Positions 3,921-37,933 of a DNA stretch of 37,933 bases are shown one piece after another. The stretch lies in sequence record DRR723986_4851, one strand, 5' to 3'. A program made the position numbers and the translations under genes. Position 1 is the first letter of the stretch; each line of letters opens with the position of its first letter. Below the pieces are notes generated by a model. That model was given only the letters and a program-made list of their open reading frames with translations. It ran no database searches and had not been told where the DNA came from.

Positions 3921-4726
3921 AAATCCTGCGATCAATCATCGTCGACGATGAAAAACTGGCGCGCCGGGGTCTGGCCCTGCGCCTGCAACACCTCCCCCAG
4001 ATCGAGCTGGTCGCTGAATGCAGCAACGGCGCCGAGGCCCTGAAGGCCGTCGCCGAACTCGCGCCTGATCTCGTATTCCTCGATATCCAGATGCCCGGGA
4101 TGGACGGCTTTGACGTGGTTAACGAGCTGCAGTCAGACACCATGCCCATGATCATTTTCGTGACCGCCTTCAATGAGTACGCGGTCGAGGCGTTCAAGGT
4201 CCACGCGGTGGACTACGTCCTGAAACCGATCGATGAGGATCGCCTGCAGGACGCGGTGGACCGGGCCATGGCCCAGCACGCACAGTCCGAGTCCATCGCC
4301 AGCAAGGAAAAGCTGGTACAGCTGGTCATGGGCATTACCGGTGCCAGTGCCAGCTCCGTGGAGGAAATGGCTGAGTCGGGTGAAGGGCCACGGAAATGGC
4401 CGGAGAAAATCACCATCAAGGACGGCAACGACATCCGCTTCATCAAGGTCGCCAGCATCCAGTGGGTAGACGCTGCGGGTGACTATATGTGCATTCACGC
4501 GTCGGGCAACACCCACATCATGCGGATCACCATGAAGCAGCTGGAAAACCTGCTGGATCCCGCTGTATTCCTGCGCGTTCATCGCTCGACCATCGTCAAT
4601 ATCAACGTGATCAACGGGGCCCAGAGTCTCGAGAACGGCGAGTACCTGCTGAACCTCGAAGGTGATGCGCAGGTCAAGGTCAGCCGCGGCTACCGCGACA
4701 AGGTGAAACAGTTCCTAACCGCCTGA
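3917..4726 (+). CDS. LytTR-family response regulator
   Basis: IVDDE, FLDIQMP, FVTAF, DYVLKP receiver domain; FLRVHRSTIVN, VSRGY LytTR domain; ATGA overlap with the kinase. Confidence 0.93.
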   Translation: MKILRSIIVDDEKLARRGLALRLQHLPQIELVAECSNGAEALKAVAELAPDLVFLDIQMPGMDGFDVVNELQSDTMPMIIFVTAFNEYAVEAFKVHAVDYVLKPIDEDRLQDAVDRAMAQHAQSESIASKEKLVQLVMGITGASASSVEEMAESGEGPRKWPEKITIKDGNDIRFIKVASIQWVDAAGDYMCIHASGNTHIMRITMKQLENLLDPAVFLRVHRSTIVNINVINGAQSLENGEYLLNLEGDAQVKVSRGYRDKVKQFLTA

Positions 4727-6898
4727 TCCGGGCTGCAGACTCACCCTACCGGCGTCGGTGACCCGGCCAATGATCGCGGCCGGATAGCCCGACTCGCGCA
4801 GTGCTGCCAGCAGCGCTGGCGCGCTATCCGGCGATATCCCGATCAATAGACCGCCCCCGGTCTGGGGGTCGAATAGCAGCGCCTCCCCGGACTCATCCAC
4901 TGTTGCCTGCACGCGATCGACCACGCTGCGCCTGTTGGCCTCATGCATTGTACTGCGGATACCCGCCGCCAGTGCTTCGCGCGCGCCGGGCAGGCAGGGG
5001 ATAGACGCCAGTTCCAGTTCGGCGCCCTGCTCCGGATCGAGCATCTCCAGCAGGTGGCCCGCCAGGCCAAAACCGGTAACGTCGGTGGCGGCACTGGCGC
5101 CGTGCTCCAGTGCCAGCCGGGCGGCGGCGGCATTGCTCTGCAGCAGGCTGTCGATGGCAGCCCTGACGTCGCGACCATCCGCCCGCAACTGCATATGGGC
5201 GGCAAATACCGCCCCACTGCCAAGCGGCCTGGTGAGAATCAAGCTATCGTCCGCCTGCAGGCCTCGCTTGGCCAGCCCCTCCGCCACCGGGACACCGGTG
5301 ACAGCGAATCCCAATTGCAGCTCGATTCCCTGCATGCTGTGCCCGCCCAGCAGGGGACAGTCCGCCTCGCGCAGGCTTTCCAGCGCTCCCGCCAGCACCT
5401 GCTCGAGATCACGCTCCAGCAGCGCCGGTGCAGCGAAGGGCAAGGTAACCAGGGCCAGGGCGGAATGCGGCCTGGCACCGCTGGCATACAGGTCCGACAG
5501 GGCATGATTGGCCGCTATCCGCCCCATCAACCAGGGGTCGGCAACCAGTCCGCGCAGGGCATCGATGCTCTGGCAGATGAGTTCCGAACCCGGTGCCGAA
5601 CGCACCGCGTCCTCGCCCGGACTTTGGCCCCGGGCATGCTCCGGGAACTTGCCGGCAAGCCGCTGCAGAACCCGGTGCAGCATGTCGGCTCCGACTTTCG
5701 CCCCGCAGCCACCGCAATGGGGTTGTGGTTCGGTAGGCAGTTCCGGCAGCCGATCCACCGCCCGCACCTTGCCCATAGACGGCAGCTCACTGAAGCGCTG
5801 CATGAATTCCCGGTCGATGCGGTCTTTCCAGCGCCACACCCAGGCACCTGAGGCGCTGAACGGCCCGCGATCCGCCGCCGCCTGCCGGTCACCCAGGGAC
5901 AGCAGCGACAGGAAGCGGCGCTGGGGCCGGTGCTCGCGCAGCTCCTGACCCAGCAGCAGGCGCCGCAGGTTGGCAGCGAGTACCGGACCCTGGCGTACCG
6001 CGTAGACACCCGCCTTGGGTCGCGGGTGATTCACCTGGGTTGCGCAGTCGCCAGCGGCAAAAATGCGATCATCATCCACTGCCTGCAAGGTGTCGCGGAT
6101 TGCGAGAAAGCCGCGCTCGTCGGTGGCCAGGCCTGAAGCGGCCAGCCAGGGTGCGGCACTGGCACCGGTACACCAGAACAACGCGTCAAAAGGCGTCGAG
6201 CCAGCACCGAACAGCTGCAGTTCACCGGCGCTGACCCGCTCAACCCTGGCCCCGCAGTGCAAGGTGACCCGGTGCCGGGCCAGGGCGTTTTCCACCACAG
6301 CCCGGGCGCGCCGGTTATAGTCCTGCAGAATCGTCGGTCCGCCACAATACAGGTCAAAGGCCAGCTCACGGTCGCGCAGACGATGAGCCATAGCCAGGAT
6401 CAGCTCGACGCCGCCGGCGCCACCGCCCACCACCGCCAGCCGCTGCCCGGGCACCAACCGGGATTCGAGGTTCTGCCAGCGCTGCCACAGCCCTGCAACC
6501 GGTTTGACCGGAACCGCAAACTCCCGCGCGCCCAGAACCGAATCAATCTCCGGCTGGGAGCCGACGTCGAGGCTTAGCAGGTCATAGCGCAGCCCGGGCC
6601 GGCCAGCCAGGGTCAGCTGCCGCGCTACCGGATCCAGTCCGGTCACTTCGGCACAGATAAAGCGCACCTGCGCCCAGGCACAGAGCCGTTCGAGGTCGAT
6701 GTGGGTTTCTTCGAAGCCGTAGTGTCCCGCCAGCAGGCCGGGCAACATCCCCGAATAGGGGGTATGGCTCGCAGGGGAAATCAGCGTGATCCGCAGGCCG
6801 GCGATCGGCCGCATTGCCAGCTTCCGCAAAACCAGGGCATGAGCGTGGCCGCCGCCGACCAGCACCAGGTCCTGCATCCATTCGTTAGTAGACAACAT
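4715..6898 (-). CDS. selD: Selenide,water dikinase SelD fused to an N-terminal FAD-dependent pyridine nucleotide-disulfide oxidoreductase domain
   Basis: N-terminal LVLVGGGHAH, TPYSGMLPG, RPKAGVYAVRQG, W.WKDRIDR.F; C-terminal HCGGCGAKVG, ANHALSDLYA, LLGGHS, TDVTGFGLAGHL, DPQTGGGLL; ATG 6898 overlaps the mnmH TGA (TGATG). Confidence 0.92.
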   Translation of the reverse strand: MLSTNEWMQDLVLVGGGHAHALVLRKLAMRPIAGLRITLISPASHTPYSGMLPGLLAGHYGFEETHIDLERLCAWAQVRFICAEVTGLDPVARQLTLAGRPGLRYDLLSLDVGSQPEIDSVLGAREFAVPVKPVAGLWQRWQNLESRLVPGQRLAVVGGGAGGVELILAMAHRLRDRELAFDLYCGGPTILQDYNRRARAVVENALARHRVTLHCGARVERVSAGELQLFGAGSTPFDALFWCTGASAAPWLAASGLATDERGFLAIRDTLQAVDDDRIFAAGDCATQVNHPRPKAGVYAVRQGPVLAANLRRLLLGQELREHRPQRRFLSLLSLGDRQAAADRGPFSASGAWVWRWKDRIDREFMQRFSELPSMGKVRAVDRLPELPTEPQPHCGGCGAKVGADMLHRVLQRLAGKFPEHARGQSPGEDAVRSAPGSELICQSIDALRGLVADPWLMGRIAANHALSDLYASGARPHSALALVTLPFAAPALLERDLEQVLAGALESLREADCPLLGGHSMQGIELQLGFAVTGVPVAEGLAKRGLQADDSLILTRPLGSGAVFAAHMQLRADGRDVRAAIDSLLQSNAAAARLALEHGASAATDVTGFGLAGHLLEMLDPEQGAELELASIPCLPGAREALAAGIRSTMHEANRRSVVDRVQATVDESGEALLFDPQTGGGLLIGISPDSAPALLAALRESGYPAAIIGRVTDAGRVSLQPGSGG

Positions 6899-7995
6899 CA
6901 GCCCTGTTGCCCCACTGCCCAGGCAACAACCGCGTCCTGGGACCCGGCGTACAGGCGTTGGCCGCTGCGCCGGGAGAGCTGGTAGTCGTACATGGGATCG
7001 TAGTAATCCGCGAGCAGCGTGCGGATCCACATCCGGTGCCCATCCGCTGGACCACCGGCGGCCTGTTCGTCGAACGCACGGTCCATCACCGCACTCAGCT
7101 CCTGTTGCAGGGCACCCCCGAGCCGTTTGCGAATCTTCAGCAGGTCACCCTGCAGGCGAGCGCGATGCTCCTGCGGGCCCTGCTCGCCAAAGGCCGCGCG
7201 GAACCGCGCCCCGAGGTCGACTATATAATCTTCCAGCACGGTCTGTACCCGGCTCTCCAGATCCTCCTCCACCATCAGCATGGGCGCCTCGACCATGCGC
7301 TCGCGCAGCTTGTCTGGCAGCGACAGGCGGCCGATGAGGCGGCCCTCGTCCTCCAGGAATACCCGCCGGTCACCGTCCACCAGCCGCTTGAGCAACGCTA
7401 TGCTCAGGGCGTTCTCGAAATCGATCTGGGAGGGCTGGGGTTCCAGCAAAAGACCAAATGCCGAGCCGCGATGCCGGGCCATGCCCTCCAGGTCCACCGC
7501 CTGCGGAATACGCTCGATTACCCGGGTTTTGCCCACACCGGTGCGGCCGCTGACCAGCACCAGCTCCGCCACCGCCAGCGAGCGCGCCAGCTCGTCGATG
7601 AGGAAGCGGCGCATGGCCTTGTAGCCGCCCCGCACCAGCGGGTAATCGACCCCCGCATCGCGCAGCCATTGCTGCACGGTCTGGGAGCGCAGGCCGCCGC
7701 GAAAACAGTAGAGATAGCCATCCGGATGGGCTTTCGCAAACGCCAGCCAGCGCTGCAGGCGTTGTTCGCGCAGGTCGCCGGCAACCAGGCGATGACCGAG
7801 CGCTATTGCCGCATCCTGGCCCTTGTTCTTGTAACAGATGCCGACCTCGGCTCGCTCTTCATCGGACATCAACGGCAGGCTGCTGGAAGAGGGAAAGGCG
7901 CCGTGGGCAAATTCAGCCGGCGCCCGCATATCCATCATCGGCGCATCCGCCAGGAACAGCGCGCGGTAATCCCCGGTGTCCTGGCGTGCGGTCAT
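6898..7995 (-). CDS. mnmH: tRNA 2-selenouridine(34) synthase MnmH/SelU
   Basis: Rhodanese DMRAPAEF, YCFRGGLRS, GGYKAMR; P-loop GRTGVGKT; HRGSAFG, QPSQIDFEN, YYDPMYDYQ. Confidence 0.95.
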   Translation of the reverse strand: MTARQDTGDYRALFLADAPMMDMRAPAEFAHGAFPSSSSLPLMSDEERAEVGICYKNKGQDAAIALGHRLVAGDLREQRLQRWLAFAKAHPDGYLYCFRGGLRSQTVQQWLRDAGVDYPLVRGGYKAMRRFLIDELARSLAVAELVLVSGRTGVGKTRVIERIPQAVDLEGMARHRGSAFGLLLEPQPSQIDFENALSIALLKRLVDGDRRVFLEDEGRLIGRLSLPDKLRERMVEAPMLMVEEDLESRVQTVLEDYIVDLGARFRAAFGEQGPQEHRARLQGDLLKIRKRLGGALQQELSAVMDRAFDEQAAGGPADGHRMWIRTLLADYYDPMYDYQLSRRSGQRLYAGSQDAVVAWAVGQQG

Positions 7996-18255: not shown

Positions 18256-20502
18256 TTGTTTTATCACCTGCTACTGACCGGCCTGCTGGCCCTGACACCC
18301 CTGATGGCCCACGCCGATGCCAGCTTCATCGGCAGCGCCAGCTGCGCCCAGTGCCACAGCACCGAATATCAGGACTGGCAGGGCTCCCACCACGACCTGG
18401 CGATGCAGCTACCCTCTGCCACCAGCGTGCTCGGCGATTTCAATGAGGCCAGCTTCAGCTATAACGGCGTTACCACCCGCTTCTACACCCGTGACGGCCA
18501 GTACTTCGTGCGCACCGATGGTGAGGACGGTAAGCTGACCGAGTTCCCGGTGCGCTATGTGTTCGGCGTCTACCCGTTACAGCAGTATCTGTTACCTCTG
18601 GATCGAGGTCGCCTGCAGGCGCTGAGCATTGCCTGGGATGCCCGGCCGGCGAGCGAAGGCGGCCAGCGCTGGTACCACCTCTACCCGGACGAGACCGTTG
18701 ACTACCGCGACCCGCTGCACTGGACCGGTCCCTACCAGAACTGGAACACTCGCTGCGCCGAATGCCACAGCACCAACGTCCAGAAAAATTACGACGCGCC
18801 GAGCCGCAGCTTCACCACCAGCTTTGACGAGGTCAATGTGGGCTGCGAGGGCTGCCACGGCCCCGGGTCAAACCACGTGCAGCTGGCCCGATCAGGAGGC
18901 CTGGACCAGGCGCCGCACCGTGGGTTTGAGCTGAATCTGGCCCAGCGCGGGGAATGGACCTTCGAAGGCCAGGACGGTATTGCGAGGCGCCGCAGTGCGC
19001 TGGATTCGGATACCCAGATTGATAACTGCGCACGCTGTCACGCGCGGCGCAGCACCCTCGGCGATTACCACTATGGTGCCGACCTGCTCGACACACACCG
19101 CCTGTCCATGCTGCAGTCGACCCTGTACCACCCCGACGGCCAGATCCTGGATGAGGTCTACGTCTACGGCTCTTTCGTGCAAAGCAAGATGCACCAGGCA
19201 GGCGTGGTCTGCAGCAACTGTCACGAGCCGCACAGCAATCGCCTGCGAGCCCCGGACAATGGCGTTTGCGCCCAGTGCCACCTGCCCGAGCGCTACGACG
19301 CCCCAACACACCATCACCACCCGGTGGCCAGTACCGGTGCCCTGTGCGCCAACTGTCACATGCCGGAGACCAACTACATGGGCGTAGACCCGCGCCGTGA
19401 CCACAGCATGCGCATTCCGCGCCCGGACCTCAGCCTGATGACCGGGGTACCCAATGCCTGCACCCAATGCCACAGCGAGCAGAGCGCAGACTGGGCCCTG
19501 GCCGCGCTGCGCTCCTGGGATGTGTCGTTCGGCGACAGTTCCAGCCACCCCGCGCGGGCTTTTCATGCGCTTGACCGCGGCGACAGTCGCGCTGTGCCGC
19601 GGCTAGCGGAGCTGGCGGCGGACACCGGCGCGGCGCCCATTTACCGCGCCTCTGCGCTGGAGGCCATCGGCCAGTTCGGCGCCCGCGAGACGGTGCCGCT
19701 GGCCCAGGAACTGCTGCAATCGTCGGATGCCATGCTCCGCGCCAGCGCGGTACGCAGCCTGCAGGGGCTGCCCGTGCCGCAGCGCTACAGCCTGCTGCAA
19801 GCGCTAATGGATGACCCGGTCACCACGGTGAGGATGGAAGTGGCTTCAAGCCTGGCATCGGTGCCCCTGGACCGAGTGAGCCCTGCCGAGGCGGAGGCCC
19901 TGCTGCAGCTGTTCGGGGAATACCGAATGCTGCAGCTGGAACATGCAGATATGCCATCGATCCAGATGCAGCTGGCCCTGTTCTACAGTGCCCGAGGGGA
20001 TTTCCCCTCGGCAGAAGCTGCCTACCGGGAGGCCCTTACCCTGAATCCGCAGCTGGTACCCGCGTACCTCAACCTGGCCGACCTGTTGCGCGGCCTGCAA
20101 CGGGAGAGCGAGGCAAGAGCACTGCTGGAACAGGCCATGGCCATCGCTCCGGAGAACGGGGCGACTTTGCATGCGCTCGGACTGCTGGAGACCCGCGGCG
20201 GGAACCGTGATGCGGCGCTGGACTTGCTCGGTCGCGCCGCCGCAGTGGAAAGCCAGGGCACCCGACACCGCTTCGTCTACGCCATCGCGCTACACGATCT
20301 GGGGCAGCCTGCTGAGGCAATCAGGCAACTGGAAGCCTTGAACCGCTCAGTGCCGGATAATGAAGATGTGTTATTAGCGCTGGCGAATTACAGCGCCGCC
20401 CAGGGGCAGAAGGAGCGCGCCCTGGCCTACGCCACGCGGCTGGTAGAACTGGCGCCGGACAACCGTGGCTACCGACAGCTACTGGGGCAGCTGGGTCGCT
20501 AG
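18256..20502 (+). CDS. Exported multiheme (8 CxxCH) cytochrome c with C-terminal HEAT/TPR repeats
   Basis: Signal peptide; CAQCH, CAECH, CEGCH, CARCH, CSNCH, CAQCH, CANCH, CTQCH; TPR-like AEAAYREALTLNP, AYLNLADL. TTG start uncertain. Confidence 0.88.
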   Translation: MFYHLLLTGLLALTPLMAHADASFIGSASCAQCHSTEYQDWQGSHHDLAMQLPSATSVLGDFNEASFSYNGVTTRFYTRDGQYFVRTDGEDGKLTEFPVRYVFGVYPLQQYLLPLDRGRLQALSIAWDARPASEGGQRWYHLYPDETVDYRDPLHWTGPYQNWNTRCAECHSTNVQKNYDAPSRSFTTSFDEVNVGCEGCHGPGSNHVQLARSGGLDQAPHRGFELNLAQRGEWTFEGQDGIARRRSALDSDTQIDNCARCHARRSTLGDYHYGADLLDTHRLSMLQSTLYHPDGQILDEVYVYGSFVQSKMHQAGVVCSNCHEPHSNRLRAPDNGVCAQCHLPERYDAPTHHHHPVASTGALCANCHMPETNYMGVDPRRDHSMRIPRPDLSLMTGVPNACTQCHSEQSADWALAALRSWDVSFGDSSSHPARAFHALDRGDSRAVPRLAELAADTGAAPIYRASALEAIGQFGARETVPLAQELLQSSDAMLRASAVRSLQGLPVPQRYSLLQALMDDPVTTVRMEVASSLASVPLDRVSPAEAEALLQLFGEYRMLQLEHADMPSIQMQLALFYSARGDFPSAEAAYREALTLNPQLVPAYLNLADLLRGLQRESEARALLEQAMAIAPENGATLHALGLLETRGGNRDAALDLLGRAAAVESQGTRHRFVYAIALHDLGQPAEAIRQLEALNRSVPDNEDVLLALANYSAAQGQKERALAYATRLVELAPDNRGYRQLLGQLGR

Positions 20503-26087: not shown

Positions 26088-27377
26088 TCAGGAAGGCACC
26101 AGCCCGGCGATCAGCTGCATCAGCTGTTCCCGGGCGCCGCGGTTCTCCCTGACCACGCGCTCACCGGCCACGCCCATGGCTTTCCGGCGCTGGGGATCAA
26201 GCGCCAGTTCAATCAATACCTCTTCCAGTTCCCCCGCCTGCTCGAGCTGGATCATTGCCCCGGCTTTCACCAGCAGGCGGCTGATTTCCAGGAAGTTGAA
26301 CATATAGGGGCCAGCGATCACCGGTACGCCCCAGGCCGCAGCCTCCAGCGCGTTATGACCGCCGTGCTCGACCAGGCTGCCGCCGATAATCGCGATATCG
26401 GCCGCCCCCAGCAGCAGGACCAATTCCCCCATGGTGTCCCCCACCACCACGTCGATATCCGGGCCCGGAGTCAGGCCGGCGGAACGCCGTTGCACCTGCC
26501 AGCCGCTGCGCTCGCAGAGGGCAAAGACATCGGCGAAGCGCTCCGGATGACGGGGCACCAGCACCAGCAGTGCGCCTGACACCGTCTCCCGCAGCCGGGC
26601 GAACACCGCCAGTAACTGCTCGTCTTCGCCGGCATGGGTACTGGCGCCGACGATGATGGTTCGTTTATCGCCTTGCCAGGATTGCTCCAGCAGTTGGGCG
26701 CGTTCACGAACATCCGGATCGAGCGCAAGATCGAATTTGATACTGCCGGTGACGTGCAGGCGCTCCGGCGGCAAGCCCAGCGCTACCAGCCGCTCACCGT
26801 CGGCTTCTGCCTGACAGGCCACGGCGGAGAGCTGTTCCAGCATCGGCCGGACCAGCGCCGGAATCCGCGCATAGCCCGCGGCGGAGCGCTCTGATAGGCG
26901 CGCATTGGCCAGCATCACCTGACAGCCATGCACCCCGCAGTAATGCAGGAGATTGGGCCACAGCTCGGTTTCGATCAGCACCAGCAATCGCGGCTGCAGG
27001 CGACGCAAAAAACGATCGGTCGCGCCGGGCAGGTCCCAGGGGGCATAAACGTGAAACACGCGATTGCCAAACAGGGCCCTGACCCGCTCCGAGCCGGTCG
27101 GCGTGGTGGTCGTCAGCGCGAGCTGATAACCCGGGTAGGCATCCAGCAGGGCTTCCACCAGCGGCACCGCTGCCAGGGTTTCACCGACGGATACCGCGTG
27201 AATCCAGATCACTGGCCGGGTGGAGTCCAGTCCAGCGGAATCCCACAGGCCAAAGCGCTCGCCCAGCCGTTTCCGGTAATCGGGCGCGCGCCGGGACCGC
27301 CACAGCATCCGCAACAGGATGCCGGGAAGGAGCAGGTAGAACAGGAGACTGTAAAGCGCGCGGATAAACCGTTCCAT
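26088..27377 (-). CDS. waaA: 3-deoxy-D-manno-octulosonic acid (Kdo) transferase
   Basis: WIHAVSVGE, TTTTPTGS, ETELWPN, NARLSERS, GSIKFD, ASTH.GE, VPRHPERF, GDTMGEL, GGHNALE. Confidence 0.96.
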   Translation of the reverse strand: MERFIRALYSLLFYLLLPGILLRMLWRSRRAPDYRKRLGERFGLWDSAGLDSTRPVIWIHAVSVGETLAAVPLVEALLDAYPGYQLALTTTTPTGSERVRALFGNRVFHVYAPWDLPGATDRFLRRLQPRLLVLIETELWPNLLHYCGVHGCQVMLANARLSERSAAGYARIPALVRPMLEQLSAVACQAEADGERLVALGLPPERLHVTGSIKFDLALDPDVRERAQLLEQSWQGDKRTIIVGASTHAGEDEQLLAVFARLRETVSGALLVLVPRHPERFADVFALCERSGWQVQRRSAGLTPGPDIDVVVGDTMGELVLLLGAADIAIIGGSLVEHGGHNALEAAAWGVPVIAGPYMFNFLEISRLLVKAGAMIQLEQAGELEEVLIELALDPQRRKAMGVAGERVVRENRGAREQLMQLIAGLVPS

Positions 27378-27442
27378 CGGTCGAACTCGGGAAAGACCGC
27401 GCCAGAATACTCGTCCGGGCCTGTTGTTGCCAAGCCGGGGAC

Positions 27443-27471
27443 TTGCCCCGGCCCGGCAAAGGCGCTACTTT
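27443..27471 (+). promoter_or_regulatory. Putative sigma70 promoter for the MeT1-like gene
   Basis: TTGCCC(27443-27448)-17 nt-TACTTT(27466-27471), upstream of ATG 27504. Confidence 0.4.
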
Positions 27472-27503
27472 CGCCAGCCCTGCCGACCATCGCGAGACAC
27501 GAC

Positions 27504-28121
27504 ATGCTGCCGGAACTGCCCCCGGAACTGCTGGAAATCAAGGGCTTCCTCGCCCCCGGGGAGGCCCAGGCCCTCTATGACTGCGCACTGGCTACGGCAG
27601 CCCTGGGGCCCATCCTGGAGATAGGCAGCTACTGCGGTAAGTCCACCATTTACCTCGGCATAGCGGCCCGTTCACTCGGTGGCACCGTATTTGCGCTCGA
27701 CCATCATCGCGGCTCGGAAGAACACCAGCCCGGCGAATTCTTTCATGACCCCGAGCTTTACGATGCGAGCACCGAAGGGGTGGATACCTTTACTGAGTTT
27801 CGACGCAATATCCGCCGGGCGGGCCTGGAAGATACCGTGGTGCCTATCGTGGCCGGTTCAGGTGCAGCAGCGCGCAGCTGGCGCACCCCCCTGGGCATGG
27901 TGTTCATCGACGGCGGTCACAGCCTGGACGCCGCCCTGACCGACTACCGGAGCTGGGCCAGCCACATTCTTCCCGGCGGACTGCTGGCGATTCACGACAT
28001 CTATCCCGACCCGTTTACCGGCGGGCAGGCACCTTACGCGGTGTTGCAGCTGGCGCGCAACTCAGGCCTGTTCGAGGAACTGTCGCGGGTCGACAGTCTC
28101 GCGGTTCTGCGCCGCTGCTAG
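27504..28121 (+). CDS. Class I SAM methyltransferase (Methyltransf_24), homolog of mycobacterial MMP 1-O-methyltransferase MeT1
   Basis: GF...E, EIGSYCGKST, DHHRGSEEHQPG, WRTPL..FIDGGH, GG.L.IHD..PDP..GGQAP, matching the recalled M. hassiacum MeT1 sequence motif by motif. Confidence 0.85.
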   Translation: MLPELPPELLEIKGFLAPGEAQALYDCALATAALGPILEIGSYCGKSTIYLGIAARSLGGTVFALDHHRGSEEHQPGEFFHDPELYDASTEGVDTFTEFRRNIRRAGLEDTVVPIVAGSGAAARSWRTPLGMVFIDGGHSLDAALTDYRSWASHILPGGLLAIHDIYPDPFTGGQAPYAVLQLARNSGLFEELSRVDSLAVLRRC

Positions 28122-28133
28122 CGGCGACGGGGT

Positions 28134-29204
28134 TTAATCCACGCGCCGCTTGCGGGTGCCGGGAGCGGCCTCAAGCAGGCTGACCTCGGTGAACAGGCGA
28201 GCTGCGGCTGTGTGACCGGTAAGGGCATCGGCGGCCAGCAGGATTGCACCGGCAGTCCAGGTGGGTTTTTCGTCCGGCCACAGCAGGTCTTCCACCAGCT
28301 GGTAACCGGTCCAGTAGGAGCCGTCCTCCGCCTGCCACTGCTGGAGCCAGCTGTACAGTTCCACGGCACGGGCATGATCTCCCGCGGCCAGCAGGGCCAT
28401 CACCAGCTCACAGGATTCTGCCACCGTAAACCAGGGCTCTTCCACGACGCAGCGGCAGCCCAGGCCTTCCTTGACGAACTCTTTCCAGCGAGAGGCCAGC
28501 CGCGCTTTTGCTTCCGCCCCCTGGTAGACGCCGGTAAGCACCGGGTAGAACCAGTCCATCGAGTAGCGTGCCTTGCTCTCCCAGGTACGGTCGAAGCGCT
28601 CCGGCTTGCTGCGCAGTGCGCGCCCCAGACGGACCCGGGCGTCGAACCACTGAGGACGTTCCTCGCCCAGGGTGACTGCGATATTGTGGGCACACTCCAG
28701 GCTCTTGTAGATGGAACTGCAGCCAGTGACCAGGGCGTCGCCCTTGGCTTTGCCCTTGCCATCCACCGCCCAGTCGATTTCACCGTGGGATGACTGCAGG
28801 CCCAGCACAAATTGGATCGCGCGCTCGACCATCGGCCACAGTCGGCGCAGGAATTCCTCGTTGCCGCTGACTAGGTAGTGATGCCAGACACCGGTCGCCG
28901 AGTAGGCCACGAAATTGGTTTCACGCCGCTCGCGATTGTCGACAATCTCACCGCGATAGGATGCCCACCAGCTGCCGTCCTCGAGTTGCAGGGAAGCGAG
29001 CCAGTCGTAGGCTCGCTCGGCCGCCTCCAGTTCCCCGGCAATCGACAGGCCCATGGCGGCCTCGACGTGGTCCCAGGGATCGGTATAGCCACCTTCAAAC
29101 CAGGGGATTTCTCCGCTCGGCCGCTGTACCTGCAGGATGAAGTCCGCTGTGGGTCGAAGAAAGTCCTCGGGAAACAGCCCGCGACTCAGGTATAGACCGC
29201 TCAT
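28134..29204 (-). CDS. 'Prenyltransferase/squalene oxidase repeat' (alpha/alpha)-barrel protein, MmpH-like methylmannoside hydrolase
   Basis: Q.PSGEIPWFEGG.TDPWDHVEAAMGL, ETNF.AY.ATGVWHH.L, AL.TG.SSIY.SL, RYSMDWFYPVL, W.T.AE.CELV.AL, DGSYWTG, WP.E..TWTA.A.LLAADAL; ATGA overlap with the upstream gene. Confidence 0.75.
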   Translation of the reverse strand: MSGLYLSRGLFPEDFLRPTADFILQVQRPSGEIPWFEGGYTDPWDHVEAAMGLSIAGELEAAERAYDWLASLQLEDGSWWASYRGEIVDNRERRETNFVAYSATGVWHHYLVSGNEEFLRRLWPMVERAIQFVLGLQSSHGEIDWAVDGKGKAKGDALVTGCSSIYKSLECAHNIAVTLGEERPQWFDARVRLGRALRSKPERFDRTWESKARYSMDWFYPVLTGVYQGAEAKARLASRWKEFVKEGLGCRCVVEEPWFTVAESCELVMALLAAGDHARAVELYSWLQQWQAEDGSYWTGYQLVEDLLWPDEKPTWTAGAILLAADALTGHTAAARLFTEVSLLEAAPGTRKRRVD

Positions 29205-29920
29205 GCGGCTGCCTCCTTGTGAAAGTACAGGACCACGCTTTTGCCCAGCACCGGATTGAGCGCGCGTTCCAGCACGCGGGTGAATGCCGGGCGTTCCAGC
29301 AGGTCCCACACCAACAGTCGGTGATACTGCTTCACCAGCCAGTTACTGTCCTGGCTGTCCCAGAACAGGCACTTCAACCACCAGTAAGGTGCGTGCAGGG
29401 CGTGAGCCCAGTGCCGGTAATAGTGACGAAAGCCGAGTTGTTCGATCTCGCCCCGCAGCTCCTCGCTGCGGAAGATCCGCAGATGGCCACCGGGGACCAG
29501 GTGATAGGCATCGCTCAGCGACCAGCAGATTTTTTCGGGCCAGCGGCGGGGAACCGATGCACAAAACAGCCCACCGGGCTTCAATACCCGGCGGATTTCG
29601 GCCAGCGCGCCGCGATAATCGGGAATATGCTCGAGAACCTCGCTGCAGATCACCTTGTCAAAACTGTCATCGGCAAAAGGCAGCTTGAGGGCGTCGGCGG
29701 AGGCCAGGGTAAAGCTGCGGCCATCGCCGGAGGTATCACCCTGAAACTCGCGAAAGCGCTGGCTCGCAGTTTGCAGATCGTCCAGGCTCAGGTCGACGCC
29801 CACCGCATCCACCGCCTGTTCGTGATAGATGGAGATCACGTGGCGCCCCTCACCACAGCCGAGATCAAGCACGCGCTCGCCGGCCTGCAGCGGGAAATGG
29901 CGATAATCAACCGTTTGCAC
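29201..29920 (-). CDS. Class I SAM methyltransferase (Methyltransf_11), putative MMP 3-O-methyltransferase
   Basis: VLDLGCGEGRH, DAL.LPFAD.SFD.VICSEVLEHI, PEKICW.LSD.YH...GGH.RI, HAHALH.PYWWLKC-like, YH.LLVWD, LNP.LGKS; GTG 29920 overlaps the 3' end of the glycosyltransferase. Confidence 0.82.
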   Translation of the reverse strand: MQTVDYRHFPLQAGERVLDLGCGEGRHVISIYHEQAVDAVGVDLSLDDLQTASQRFREFQGDTSGDGRSFTLASADALKLPFADDSFDKVICSEVLEHIPDYRGALAEIRRVLKPGGLFCASVPRRWPEKICWSLSDAYHLVPGGHLRIFRSEELRGEIEQLGFRHYYRHWAHALHAPYWWLKCLFWDSQDSNWLVKQYHRLLVWDLLERPAFTRVLERALNPVLGKSVVLYFHKEAAA

Positions 29921-31148
29921 TGGCCAGCACCCGCCTGTAATAAGCCACCATATCCCGGGCACAGACGTCCCAGCTGAACTTTTCGATAATCCTGCTGCGC
30001 CCGCGCTGGCCCAGCTCCGCCCGCTGCCCCGGGTCGAGCAGCAGCTGTTCGATTGCCGCCGACAGGGCCTGGGCGTTCTTCGCCGGCACGATGACTCCGG
30101 CATCACCCACGACCTCGGGCAATGCGCCGCCATCGGTACTGACGACCGGCACCCCACAGGCCATGGCCTCACCCGCAGGCAGGCCGAAGCCCTCGTAGAT
30201 GGAGGGCACCACGGCGACCGTGGCCTCAGCGTAGTAGCGCACCATCTGATCAGTACTGATGCCGCTGACAAATTTGATTCGGTCCGCCAGACCCAGGCGA
30301 TCCACCAATTGCTCGGTCTTTCCGCCAGGCTGGGGCTTGCTGACCAGCAGCAGTTCCAGCTCCGGATGCCGCTTGAGCAGGTCTGCATAGGCCAGCAGCA
30401 GGTAGCGCAGGCCCTTGAGGGGTGCATCCGCTGATGCCGTCGCCATCAGGCGCAGGGGCTTGCGGGGAATATCGGGCCGCGGGCTGAAGACCTCCGTATC
30501 GATCCCGTTGTACACCAGATCAATACCTGCGGGCTGCAAGCCGAAATCCCGGGCAATGTCCTGGCGCGAGCAGTCGGACACGGTCACCACATTGTGCAGT
30601 TGCTTGACCACCCGCTTCTGCATATGCAGGAAAGAATGCCAGCGCCGGATCAGCAGGCGCTCGTACCCATGGCGCGCCGCCGCCAGGGCTATTCTCAGGT
30701 CACTGGTGATCGGGTGGTGTACCGTGGTCACCAGCGGCAGCCCCATGTCCTGCAGCTGCAGCATGCCGTAGCTCAGGCTCTGGTTGTCGTGCACCAGGTC
30801 GTAATCGTGACCGTGTTGGCGCAGGTATTTCACCGCCCTGCGACCAAAGGTGTAGGGTTCGGCAAACCCCCCGGTCAGCTTGCTGGTCCACTCGATCACA
30901 TTGCTCAGCGAACGCAGGTGCCGGGGGCGCAGCGACCCGAGGCCATTCTCGAACAGGTCCAGGCTGGGCAGCGTGATCAGCCGCACCCGCTCGTCCAGGT
31001 GCGGGTAGGGCGGGCCGGAAATCACATCTACCCGGTGACCGGCATCGACCAGGGCCTTGCTCAGGTACCGGAGGTAGACGCCCTGCCCGCCCCCATGGGG
31101 CTGGCTGCGATAACCCAGCAGGGCAATACGCAGCGGCTGCGCGGCCAC
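29907..31148 (-). CDS. GT4 glycosyltransferase, homolog of mycobacterial MMP alpha-(1,4)-mannosyltransferase ManT
   Basis: RIALLGYRS.PHGGGQGVY, SG.PYP.LD, PSLDL, GGFAEP.TF, VHDNQSL, T.HHPIT.D, ASAD.PLKG, PS.YEGFGLPA.EAMACG; start may extend to an in-frame ATC at 31223. Confidence 0.85.
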   Translation of the reverse strand: MAAQPLRIALLGYRSQPHGGGQGVYLRYLSKALVDAGHRVDVISGPPYPHLDERVRLITLPSLDLFENGLGSLRPRHLRSLSNVIEWTSKLTGGFAEPYTFGRRAVKYLRQHGHDYDLVHDNQSLSYGMLQLQDMGLPLVTTVHHPITSDLRIALAAARHGYERLLIRRWHSFLHMQKRVVKQLHNVVTVSDCSRQDIARDFGLQPAGIDLVYNGIDTEVFSPRPDIPRKPLRLMATASADAPLKGLRYLLLAYADLLKRHPELELLLVSKPQPGGKTEQLVDRLGLADRIKFVSGISTDQMVRYYAEATVAVVPSIYEGFGLPAGEAMACGVPVVSTDGGALPEVVGDAGVIVPAKNAQALSAAIEQLLLDPGQRAELGQRGRSRIIEKFSWDVCARDMVAYYRRVLASANG

Positions 31149-34939: not shown

Positions 34940-35809
34940 TCAACCGGAAGGCGCCACGTGCGCCATAATCCAGTCCGCCAGCTCACCCAGGACCTGCTGG
35001 CGCTCCGGCTCATTGAATATCTCATGATACAGGCCGGGGTAGAGCTCAAGCTGCTTGTCCGTCGAACCGATGCCCTCATAAAAAACCCGGGAACCCTCAG
35101 GGGGGGTCATCGCATCCGCATCACCGTGCATCACCAGCATCGGCAAGGTGAGAGCGCTGCGCCCGGCAGCTACCGCATCCATCATCGCAAACAATTCCGT
35201 TACCAGGCGCGCGCTGATCTTGCCGCTGTGTACCAGGGGATCGCTGACATAGCGCTGGACGACCTCCGGATCACGGCTGACCTCGGCTGCATCGAGTTGC
35301 AACACGCCCAGGGTGGGCCAGACCAGGGACAGACAGCGCATCAGCAGCAGGGTCAGGGCAGAGGGCGCTTCCGGCATTTGCAGTGCTGCCGCGGACAGGG
35401 CGGCGCCGGCAAACTCACTCTGGTGGTTCAGCAGGTAACGGGCGCTGATCAGCCCGCCCATGCTGTGGCCAACCAGGAAGCAGGGACTGCCGGGATACCA
35501 CATGTCGATCATGTCGCGCAGTTCATCCAGGGGGGTCATGAATTCCTCGGCGCTGCGGCAAAAGGCCCGGCGCCCCGGCGACAGTCCGTGGCCGATATGG
35601 TCCGGCGCAACGACCGCCAGCTCCCTGCTGCGCATGAATCGGGCAAAGTCACTGTAGCGGCCCGAGTGCTCACCGAGACCATGTACCAGCAGGATGACGC
35701 CCCGCGCCGCGGGTACTCGCCAATGGCGGTAAAAGACACCGCCCTGCAGCTGCCCCTCTTCCGCTTCCGCTACCTGTGGGGGCTGATCGTGTTCCTGGTC
35801 TGTATCCAT
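34940..35809 (-). CDS. Alpha/beta hydrolase, monoacylglycerol lipase/lysophospholipase family
   Basis: VHGLGEHSGRY, DHIGHGLS.G, GHSMGG nucleophile elbow, HGDAD, YHEIFNEPE. Confidence 0.9.
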   Translation of the reverse strand: MDTDQEHDQPPQVAEAEEGQLQGGVFYRHWRVPAARGVILLVHGLGEHSGRYSDFARFMRSRELAVVAPDHIGHGLSPGRRAFCRSAEEFMTPLDELRDMIDMWYPGSPCFLVGHSMGGLISARYLLNHQSEFAGAALSAAALQMPEAPSALTLLLMRCLSLVWPTLGVLQLDAAEVSRDPEVVQRYVSDPLVHSGKISARLVTELFAMMDAVAAGRSALTLPMLVMHGDADAMTPPEGSRVFYEGIGSTDKQLELYPGLYHEIFNEPERQQVLGELADWIMAHVAPSG

Positions 35810-35876
35810 CAATTCGCTATCTCCCGCTGGACCGCGGCTTACCCGCAGTCACCAAGCACTTGCGCCAGAAGGCCGA

Positions 35877-37041: not shown

Positions 37042-37933
37042 TCAGGCGACGGGCTCCAGCCATTCACTGTTCTGGCTGCGGTTGCCGCGCACGCTGTCGA
37101 AATACATCGTCTGCAACTTCTCGGTCAGCGGGCCGCGGGAGCCGCTGCCAATAGTGCGCCCGTCGAGTTCGCGTATCGGCACAACCTCGGCGGCGGTACC
37201 GGTGAAGAATGCCTCATCGGCGATGTAGACCTCGTCCCGGGTAATCCGTCGCTCGCGGACGGTATAGCCGAGCTCCTCCGCCAGGGTGAAGACGGTGGCG
37301 CGGGTAATGCCGTCGAGACAGGAAGTCAGCTCGGGCGTGTAGATGGTGTTATTGCGGATGACAAACACGTTCTCACCGCTGCCCTCCGCCACATATCCCT
37401 CGTTATCCAGCAGCAGGGCCTCCTCGGCGCCGCTATCGAGAGCCTCCCGAAGGGCCAGCATGGAGTTGATGTAGTTGCCGTTGGCCTTCGCCTTGCACAT
37501 GGAAATGTTCACGTGGTGGCGAGTAAAAGACGAGGTGCGCACCTTGATGCCCCGGTCTCGGGCCTCCGGGTCCATATAGGAGGGCCATTCCCAGGCCGCA
37601 ACCATCACGTGGGTCTTCAGGTTGTCAGCCCGCAGGCCCATACCTTCAGAACCATAAAAACACATGGGCCGGAGATAACCCTCTTCCAGCCCGTTTTCCC
37701 GGACAACATCTTTCTGCGCCTGGTTGAGCGTCTCGCGGTCAAAGGGCATATCCATAGACAGGATGTGGGCCGAATTGAACAAGCGGTTGGTGTGTTCTTT
37801 CAGGCGGAAGATGCAGGTGCCCCGATCCGACGTCTTATAGGCACGCACTCCTTCAAACACGCCCAGCCCGTAGTGGAACGTGTGGGTCAGCACATGCACT
37901 TTCGCTTCCCGCCAGGGAACCATTTCACCATCC
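37042..37933 (-). CDS. ilvE: Branched-chain amino acid aminotransferase (5' end outside window)
   Basis: HYGLGVFEGVRAY, KAKANGNY, EGSGEN, LDGITR, ADEAFFTGTAAEV. Confidence 0.96.
   Translation of the reverse strand, partial: DGEMVPWREAKVHVLTHTFHYGLGVFEGVRAYKTSDRGTCIFRLKEHTNRLFNSAHILSMDMPFDRETLNQAQKDVVRENGLEEGYLRPMCFYGSEGMGLRADNLKTHVMVAAWEWPSYMDPEARDRGIKVRTSSFTRHHVNISMCKAKANGNYINSMLALREALDSGAEEALLLDNEGYVAEGSGENVFVIRNNTIYTPELTSCLDGITRATVFTLAEELGYTVRERRITRDEVYIADEAFFTGTAAEVVPIRELDGRTIGSGSRGPLTEKLQTMYFDSVRGNRSQNSEWLEPVA

Follow-up and report, generated by a model that had tools for sequence, protein, structure and literature searches.

Can a Gram-negative bacterium carry the complete set of genes for methylmannose polysaccharide (MMP)? 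For five decades, work on this polymer has treated it as a peculiarity of mycobacteria and streptomycetes that is connected with their lipid metabolism. The question is raised by four adjacent genes at positions 27504-31148 of sequence record DRR723986_4851, a stretch of 37,933 nucleotides that is referred to here, at its full length, as the window. An initial interpretation made from the letters alone (the sequence-only reading) had proposed a complete mycobacterial-type MMP gene set in a Gram-negative gammaproteobacterium. We found that the set is present, with four genes in the mycobacterial order, three of which encode proteins with near-full-length matches to solved enzymes of M. hassiacum. 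By analogy with the mycobacterial cluster, the four genes are likely to be its complete and functional counterpart and to direct the synthesis of a cytoplasmic polymethylated mannan.

Identity of the four genes

The four open reading frames (ORFs) named in the sequence-only reading are all intact and have the same ends (Table 1). Three of them form a minus-strand trio encoding ManT-, MeT3- and MmpH-like proteins, and the fourth, on the plus strand, encodes a MeT1-like protein and is convergent with the trio. Synteny was compared with locus L080 of the Mycobacteriales, where the order and orientation ManT>MeT3>MmpH<MeT1 are the same. Identities between the window and L080 are 49% for ManT, 50% over 100% of the length for MeT3 (the gene occupying the same slot), 49% for MmpH and 54% over 97% of the length for MeT1 (the convergent gene). 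The M. hassiacum enzymes are the best solved relatives of three of the proteins, and the fourth matches the pMeT3 slot of L080; the comparison with mycobacterial MMP enzymes therefore came out as the sequence-only reading had anticipated.

Against all PDB chains the MmpH-like protein matches 7qsj, 'Methylmannose polysaccharide hydrolase (MmpH)', with an E-value of 2.1e-97, the next-best match standing at 4.8e-5. All 11 MmpH residues that Maranha et al. list (2023, Commun Biol 6:108, PMC9883506) are identical in the window protein, namely the base Glu262, Asp47 and Asp50, and Trp49, Asn101, Phe102, Thr163, Met215, Tyr219, Glu265 and Trp315. In M. hassiacum MmpH, Glu262 is described as the catalytic base and Asp47/Asp50 as the acid, and an Asp50Ala variant lost most of its activity (PMC9883506). 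Eight of eight alphaproteobacterial rows (L038, L042, L043, L046, L048, L049, L051 and L064) have Asn at the position of Asp50, which agrees with Asp47 as the true catalytic acid. The label 'prenyltransferase', under which this gene had appeared in the sequence-only reading, is an NCBI automatic name and had to be given up, the protein being an (alpha/alpha)6-barrel glycoside hydrolase of the MmpH family. Some of its homologues are named 'MMP endo-(1,4)-3-O-methyl-alpha-D-mannosidase' by the JGI pipeline. Searches of NCBIfam gave only weak GH15-like matches and searches of Pfam only a GH95 match, all below threshold. The product is predicted to be the recycling hydrolase. Four homologues, P0156 (590 aa), P0183 (606 aa), P0187 (740 aa) and P0175 (519 aa), carry their MmpH match in the C-terminal ~330 residues; they are probably MmpH fused to a further domain, which may be a methyltransferase or glycosyltransferase domain.

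The ManT-like protein of glycosyltransferase family 4 (GT4) has its best PDB match in 7qsg (E-value 2.4e-106, query residues 6-410 aligned with chain residues 27-433), followed at a distance by a match at 2.3e-30. The title of entry 7qsg is 'D-inositol 3-phosphate glycosyltransferase'; we take the chain to be the M. hassiacum ManT of PMC9883506 because the residue numbering fits at an offset of +26. Of the ten ManT residues named in that paper, the window protein shares eight (G15, H142, K240, E313, G314, F315, L317 and E321). Together with the 7qsg match this bears out the earlier assignment of the GT4 gene to ManT, and the product is predicted to be an alpha-1,4-mannosyltransferase.

For the MeT1-like protein the best PDB matches are the M. 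hassiacum chains 6g7d, 6g80 and 6h40 (E-value 9.4e-57), with the next-best match at 3.5e-6; query residues 12-204 align with residues 17-209 of chain 6g7d. The MeT1 motifs that the sequence-only reading had listed are readable in the 6g7d alignment, and they lie in columns where the window residue is found in at least 95% of 53 rows drawn from four phyla. The Methyltransf_24-type MeT1 that belongs to an MMP cluster is thus present, as seen in the 6g7d match and the conserved motifs. NCBIfam holds no model for MeT1. The predicted function is that of a 1-O-methyltransferase capping the reducing end.

The pMeT3-like protein has no close solved relative among PDB chains, its best matches having E-values of 2e-15 to 3e-14. 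These include chain 6uv6, named D-glucose O-methyltransferase. The slot between manT and mmpH is filled by a pMeT3 homologue in 70 of 80 related loci, and the product is predicted to be the 3-O-methyltransferase of the mannose units.

Overlapping frames in the ManT-MeT3-MmpH trio indicate that the trio is translationally coupled, as had been proposed. In the nucleotide sequence the methyltransferase gene starts with a GTG at 29920 and overlaps the end of the GT4 gene (stop codon 29909-29907) by 14 nt, and the hydrolase ATG at 29204 and the methyltransferase stop overlap by 4 nt as ATGA, with AAGGAGG just 5' of it. The stop codons of the convergent MeT1 and hydrolase genes are 12 nt apart. The intergenic region between waaA and the MeT1-like gene is presumably the site of the promoters; it contains a single weak promoter-like site, at 27433-27404 (minus strand). 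When 26-32 kb was scanned for promoters and terminators, the number of sites did not exceed that in shuffled sequence.

Table 1. Features of the MMP-type module and its divergent intergenic region in the window
Feature	Position	Strand	Size and supporting match
MeT1-like S-adenosylmethionine (SAM)-dependent methyltransferase	27504-28121	+	205 aa; Pfam PF13578 (Methyltransf_24), E 3e-22
MmpH-like (alpha/alpha)6-barrel endo-alpha-1,4-(3-O-methyl)mannosidase, predicted	28134-29204	-	356 aa; PDB 7qsj match
pMeT3-like class I SAM methyltransferase	29201-29920	-	239 aa; Pfam Methyltransf_11, E 4e-23
ManT-like GT4 retaining glycosyltransferase	29907-31148	-	413 aa; Pfam Glycos_transf_1 and Glyco_transf_4
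Divergent intergenic region, 126 bp, between waaA and the MeT1-like gene	27378-27503		ORF layout

Distribution of the module

Among 5169 homologues the nearest show 75-91% identity, and the named ones are from Halioglobus, Parahaliea, Seongchinamella, Kineobactrum and other Halieaceae. The window is therefore Halieaceae DNA, and the host is a Gram-negative gammaproteobacterium, as the sequence-only reading had held. When a sample of 151 Halieaceae genomes was searched at a threshold of E<=1e-30, 146 gave an MmpH match and 148 a MeT1 match; three genomes lack both. The module is a near-universal trait of the family and not a one-off acquisition.

Related loci were surveyed using one genome per species, which gave at least 600 places with MmpH relatives. 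The best 80 of these were analysed; they are the nearest to the query and form an uneven sample. Gram-negative carriers among the best 80 loci are Halieaceae, Spongiibacteraceae, Cellvibrionaceae, Microbulbifer, SAR86, Alphaproteobacteria (Parvibaculum and Rhodobiaceae) and Thermodesulfobacteriota, and the actinobacterial carriers are Streptomyces, Embleya, Dietzia and a metagenome-assembled genome of the Mycobacteriales. The statement that such genes are known only from Actinobacteria does not hold at the gene level, given their presence in 146 of 151 Halieaceae genomes and in several proteobacterial classes. The trio is contiguous in 70 of the 80 loci. Of the other ten, contig ends interrupt five, the MeT3 match is short in a sixth, and MmpH stands alone in the remaining four, which are deltaproteobacterial. 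In five genomes whose locus lacked MeT1, the gene was found elsewhere in the genome in every case.

Among 401 sampled gammaproteobacterial genomes, ten were positive for MmpH. Seven of the ten (G172, G195, G277, G360, G373, G405 and G551) are only 0.9-2.1 Mb in size; either streamlined genomes have retained the 3.6-kb module or the assemblies are not complete. A link of the module to neutral-lipid storage was considered for the same sample and dropped as a general explanation. Wax-ester synthase/diacylglycerol acyltransferase (WS/DGAT, PF03007) occurs in 2 of 10 MmpH-positive and 17 of 390 MmpH-negative genomes (G403 not scored; one-sided Fisher p 0.077, a test that ignores kinship), and most of the small-genome carriers do not have it. 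As an individual case, the Seongchinamella sediminis genome (G001, locus L003) has six separate PF03007 matches.

Proposed pathway

Maranha et al. reported the activities of MmpH, ManT and MeT1 from M. hassiacum and a self-recycling model for MMP (PMC9883506). If the window proteins act like these, the ManT-like enzyme would lengthen alpha-1,4 oligomannosides of at least four units with mannose, the donor most likely being GDP-mannose, and the pMeT3-like enzyme would use SAM to methylate the 3-OH of the added mannose units. The MeT1-like enzyme would place a methyl group on the free 1-OH at the reducing end. The MmpH-like endo-mannosidase would then cleave mature chains, and the resulting oligomers would prime the next round of synthesis, so that the polymer would propagate from pre-existing polymer in a self-recycling manner. 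The product of such a cycle would be a small, soluble, cytoplasmic polymethylated mannan. Judged from the protein sequences, the most likely product is a self-recycled 3-O-methyl-alpha-1,4-mannan that stays in the cytoplasm.

Direct support is available for orthology, for the conserved catalytic residues, for the coupling of the genes, for the absence of export signals and for the family-wide retention of the module. From these we infer the activities, the product, its location and the binding of acyl-CoA. By analogy, the role in a Gram-negative host would most likely be to sequester hydrophobic acyl chains. An MMP-negative mutant of M. smegmatis grew more slowly at 15 C (PMC9883506), and the polymer may possibly help with growth in the cold in the Halieaceae as well.

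Several points weigh against a complete MMP pathway in this host. Classically, MMP is assigned a role in the lipid metabolism of mycobacteria, and Proteobacteria use type II fatty acid synthesis. Chemical evidence of the polymer in any Proteobacterium was not found in the literature searched. The module of the Halieaceae is flanked by the envelope genes waaA/tolC and rmlACBD, a setting that is taken up below. The supply of GDP-mannose was examined in relatives of the host: full-length GDP-mannose pyrophosphorylase ManC (TIGR01479, 732 and 728 bits at a cut-off of 373) occurs in two module-carrying Halieaceae genomes. Both guanine contacts of ManT differ in the window, Leu291 being replaced by Ile297 and Asp293 by Thr299, followed by Asp300. 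The change of Asp293 to Thr makes GDP-mannose less certain as the donor, and the nucleotide donor could be a different one. Finally, pMeT3 is putative even in mycobacteria (PMC9883506). As to the donor pocket, contacts of guanine with Leu291 (main chain) and Asp293 (side chain) were proposed from superposition (PMC9883506). Because the contact is itself a proposal from superposition, the change at Asp293 lowers the certainty about the donor without excluding membership in the MMP cluster.

The donor pocket is also the starting point for the alternative that survives best, although we consider it unlikely: the same working cycle could operate on a chemically different methylated glycan, with another donor or sugar, another chain length or another methylation pattern. 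The Asp293 position is occupied by Asp in all 16 Actinomycetota rows of a 71-row ManT alignment. The 40 other gammaproteobacterial rows have Thr in 26 cases, like the window, Asn in four, His in three and Asp in two, usually with Glu or Asp next, and the donor-pocket change appears in this alignment as a lineage-specific one. A different glycan would also suit the identities to actinobacterial proteins, which are only 43-54%, and the presence in some lineages of an acyltransferase gene after mmpH, considered together with the acetylated MMP reported from Streptomyces griseus (PMC9883506); lineage-specific acyltransferases and an acetylated form indicate that the product varies within the family. 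However, the window matches the M. hassiacum enzymes at the mannosyl contacts E313, G314, F315 and L317 and at every MmpH subsite residue. The acidic residue at position 300 directly follows the changed one, and ManC is full-length in the two relatives.

Genomic neighbourhood and location of the product

The module lies in core chromosome, and the gene order in the window is parE, metallophosphoesterase, DUF1249, tolC, waaA, the module, rmlA, rmlC, rmlB, rmlD and an alpha/beta hydrolase. The waaA gene (26088-27377, minus strand) is divergent from the MeT1-like gene at 126 bp, tolC and rmlA/C/B/D flank the module, and waaA is a neighbour of the module in 15 of 81 sources (twelve Halieaceae, two Spongiibacteraceae and one SAR86). 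Methylated mannose caps certain O-antigen polymannans, as in E. coli O8/O9a. With such neighbours, the genes could be taken to decorate the envelope by placing a methylated mannan on the lipopolysaccharide core, the O-antigen or the capsule, a reading that we regard as very improbable on the following evidence.

A heuristic Kyte-Doolittle scan detected no signal peptide or membrane segment in the four proteins, in agreement with the sequence-only reading, which had noted no evident signal peptide. Their top 19-residue means are 0.87-1.28 and their top N-terminal 12-residue means 0.53-1.45. The positive controls WaaA and TolC reached N-terminal 12-residue means of 2.55 and 1.92, and both the WaaA anchor and the TolC signal peptide were detected. 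Genes for an ABC transporter, a flippase, a ligase or a polyprenyl-phosphate glycosyltransferase are absent from 24.5-35.8 kb of the window.

To compare neighbours across lineages, the ORFs of the 80 loci and of the window (81 sources in 14 lineage groups) were clustered. The only gene families common to all 14 groups are MmpH (80 of 81 sources), ManT (72), MeT3 (70) and MeT1 (55); apart from them, only antisense shadow ORFs of the four genes reach more than six groups. No transporter, flippase or lipid-carrier (priming) glycosyltransferase is among the families in at least three groups (eight scanned with Pfam, four unscanned), nor are export or ligase genes among the families common across lineages. 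The envelope flanks are missing at the Microbulbifer, Cellvibrionaceae, alphaproteobacterial, deltaproteobacterial and actinobacterial loci, where the four genes still stand together, and a cytoplasmic endo-hydrolase does not suit an export pathway. A cytoplasmic product is favoured because there are no export signals, no transporter that travels with the genes, and an endo-hydrolase among them. The least probable reading is a catabolic or salvage module for the uptake and remodelling of methylated mannans of other organisms: MmpH is a hydrolase and the Cellvibrionales are known as polysaccharide degraders, yet the hydrolase has no signal peptide, no transporter or TonB-dependent receptor is found among the common neighbour families, three of the four enzymes are biosynthetic, and the module is kept in genomes of 0.9-2.1 Mb.

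Several other neighbours were observed. A hexapeptide-repeat acyltransferase gene (the L060:7953-8753 cluster) lies directly 3' of mmpH in six deltaproteobacterial, two Cellvibrionaceae and three Microbulbifer loci and is not present in the window; its occurrence in three lineage groups recalls the acetylated MMP of S. griseus. Beyond the four genes, the only non-shadow cluster in more than three groups is one of enoyl-CoA hydratase genes (the L044:12410-13351 cluster), found less than 7 kb from the module in six sources of five lineage groups, though paralogues may be mixed in it. The presence of this neighbour suggests, though weakly, a connection with fatty-acid metabolism. In the window itself a Hydrolase_4 gene of the lysophospholipase/monoacylglycerol-lipase type (34940-35812, minus strand) adjoins rmlD. 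A class IV aminotransferase gene (37042-37923, minus strand) has counterparts close to the module in Halieaceae, Spongiibacteraceae and SAR86, which fits an ancestral chromosomal position in common. Away from the module, the window contains a 771-aa ORF (4715-7030, minus strand) with a pyridine-nucleotide-disulphide oxidoreductase domain and AIRS/AIRS_C domains of the selenophosphate-synthetase type, and a 748-aa ORF (18256-20502, plus strand) in which multihaem cytochrome c motifs precede HEAT and TPR repeats.

History and composition

A tree was computed from concatenated ManT, MeT3 and MmpH (71 rows, quick search, LG+G4, SH-aLRT support only, midpoint root). The window and 48 Pseudomonadota lie on one side of a branch with a support of 99, while 16 Actinomycetota have their own branch with a support of 100, as do six delta-type rows (also 100). 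Alphaproteobacteria are apart from Gammaproteobacteria, families group together, and the window falls among the Halieaceae. The MeT1 tree is weaker than the trio tree, and the number of label changes that it needs is a minimum.

GC content is 0.61-0.65 in the module and 0.61-0.67 in tolC, waaA, rmlABD and parE, and the corresponding values for third codon positions (GC3) are 0.73-0.80 and 0.77-0.82. The likeness in composition to the flanking genes, which had been judged by eye in the sequence-only reading, is thus confirmed by the figures. That reading went on to suggest an old, ameliorated acquisition. Old age and native composition stand, while acquisition is not borne out, the phyla being on opposite sides of a supported branch. 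Because Pseudomonadota and Actinomycetota are split by a well-supported branch, there is no sign of an actinobacterial transfer into the lineage, and recent transfer from Actinobacteria was rejected in view of the native composition, the family-wide presence and the separate phylum clades. As the tree is unrooted, ancient transfer and descent with loss are indistinguishable in it. In the Halieaceae the module is old and native, a core trait that has been kept vertically.

Comparison with known systems

The nearest known system is the mycobacterial MMP cluster (manT, pmeT3, mmpH and meT1 in M. hassiacum and M. smegmatis). Besides having all four genes in the order and orientation of L080, the window keeps Glu262 and Asp47/Asp50 of MmpH and Gly15, His142, Lys240, Glu313 and Glu321 of ManT. 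It differs in its Gram-negative marine host, in the waaA/tolC and rmlACBD setting and in the Thr that replaces Asp293 of ManT; the proteobacterial sequences form a clade of their own. With the Streptomyces and Embleya loci the window shares the ManT-MeT3-MmpH trio, at 43-54% identity to the window proteins. Unlike in Streptomyces, where MeT1 is several kb from mmpH or outside the locus, the module of the window is compact and has no acyltransferase.

O-antigen systems of the E. coli O8/O9a type combine GT4 mannosyltransferases and SAM-dependent methylation of mannose with an ABC transporter and a membrane-associated terminator. The window resembles them in its predicted GT4-family mannosyltransferase and SAM-dependent methylation. 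In contrast, neither an ABC transporter nor a terminator is found at 24.5-35.8 kb of the window or among the cross-lineage families, and we know of no MmpH-type hydrolase or MeT1 in O8/O9a-type systems.

Judged by title and the start of the abstract, none of the papers since 2019 that contain 'methylmannose' in the literature searched, which did not cover subscription journals, is about Proteobacteria. Combining MMP with Proteobacteria, Gammaproteobacteria, Halieaceae or Cellvibrionales returned nothing relevant in the literature searched. The main text of Maranha et al. 2023 makes no mention of Proteobacteria or Gram-negatives (PMC9883506). In the parts of that publication used here, proteobacterial homologues of MmpH are noted by its authors only in a reply to reviewers and are left outside their study (PMC9883506). 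The module is a known system in a new host range, and the window alone is one more carrier of a known cluster. At the level of sequence the interpretation with which we began is supported.

Implications for the Halieaceae and for MMP

Interest in the finding is moderate until the polymer is demonstrated. We put forward, tentatively and with more doubt than confidence, a broader view in which MMP-type mannans are an old, self-propagating cytoplasmic glycan that is core in Gram-negative bacteria abundant in the marine plankton, namely Halieaceae (OM60/NOR5), SAR86 and other Cellvibrionales. Such a glycan might serve a general role in the handling of hydrophobic acyl chains, for example in the cold, and would be neither peculiar to Actinobacteria nor bound to type I fatty acid synthase. 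More speculatively, and drawing on general knowledge, some of the O-methylated hexoses in marine organic matter could come from an MMP-type glycan. To our knowledge ManT is the only known alpha-1,4-mannosyltransferase, and the Asp293-to-Thr change in the proteobacterial proteins is a natural experiment on donor recognition. If it is true that nearly all Halieaceae and streamlined plankton such as SAR86 make the polymer, the function of MMP would be independent of type I fatty acid synthase and of mycolic-acid biology, genetically simpler and non-pathogenic hosts would be available for its study, and common marine bacteria would hold a methylated sugar pool that has so far gone uncounted.

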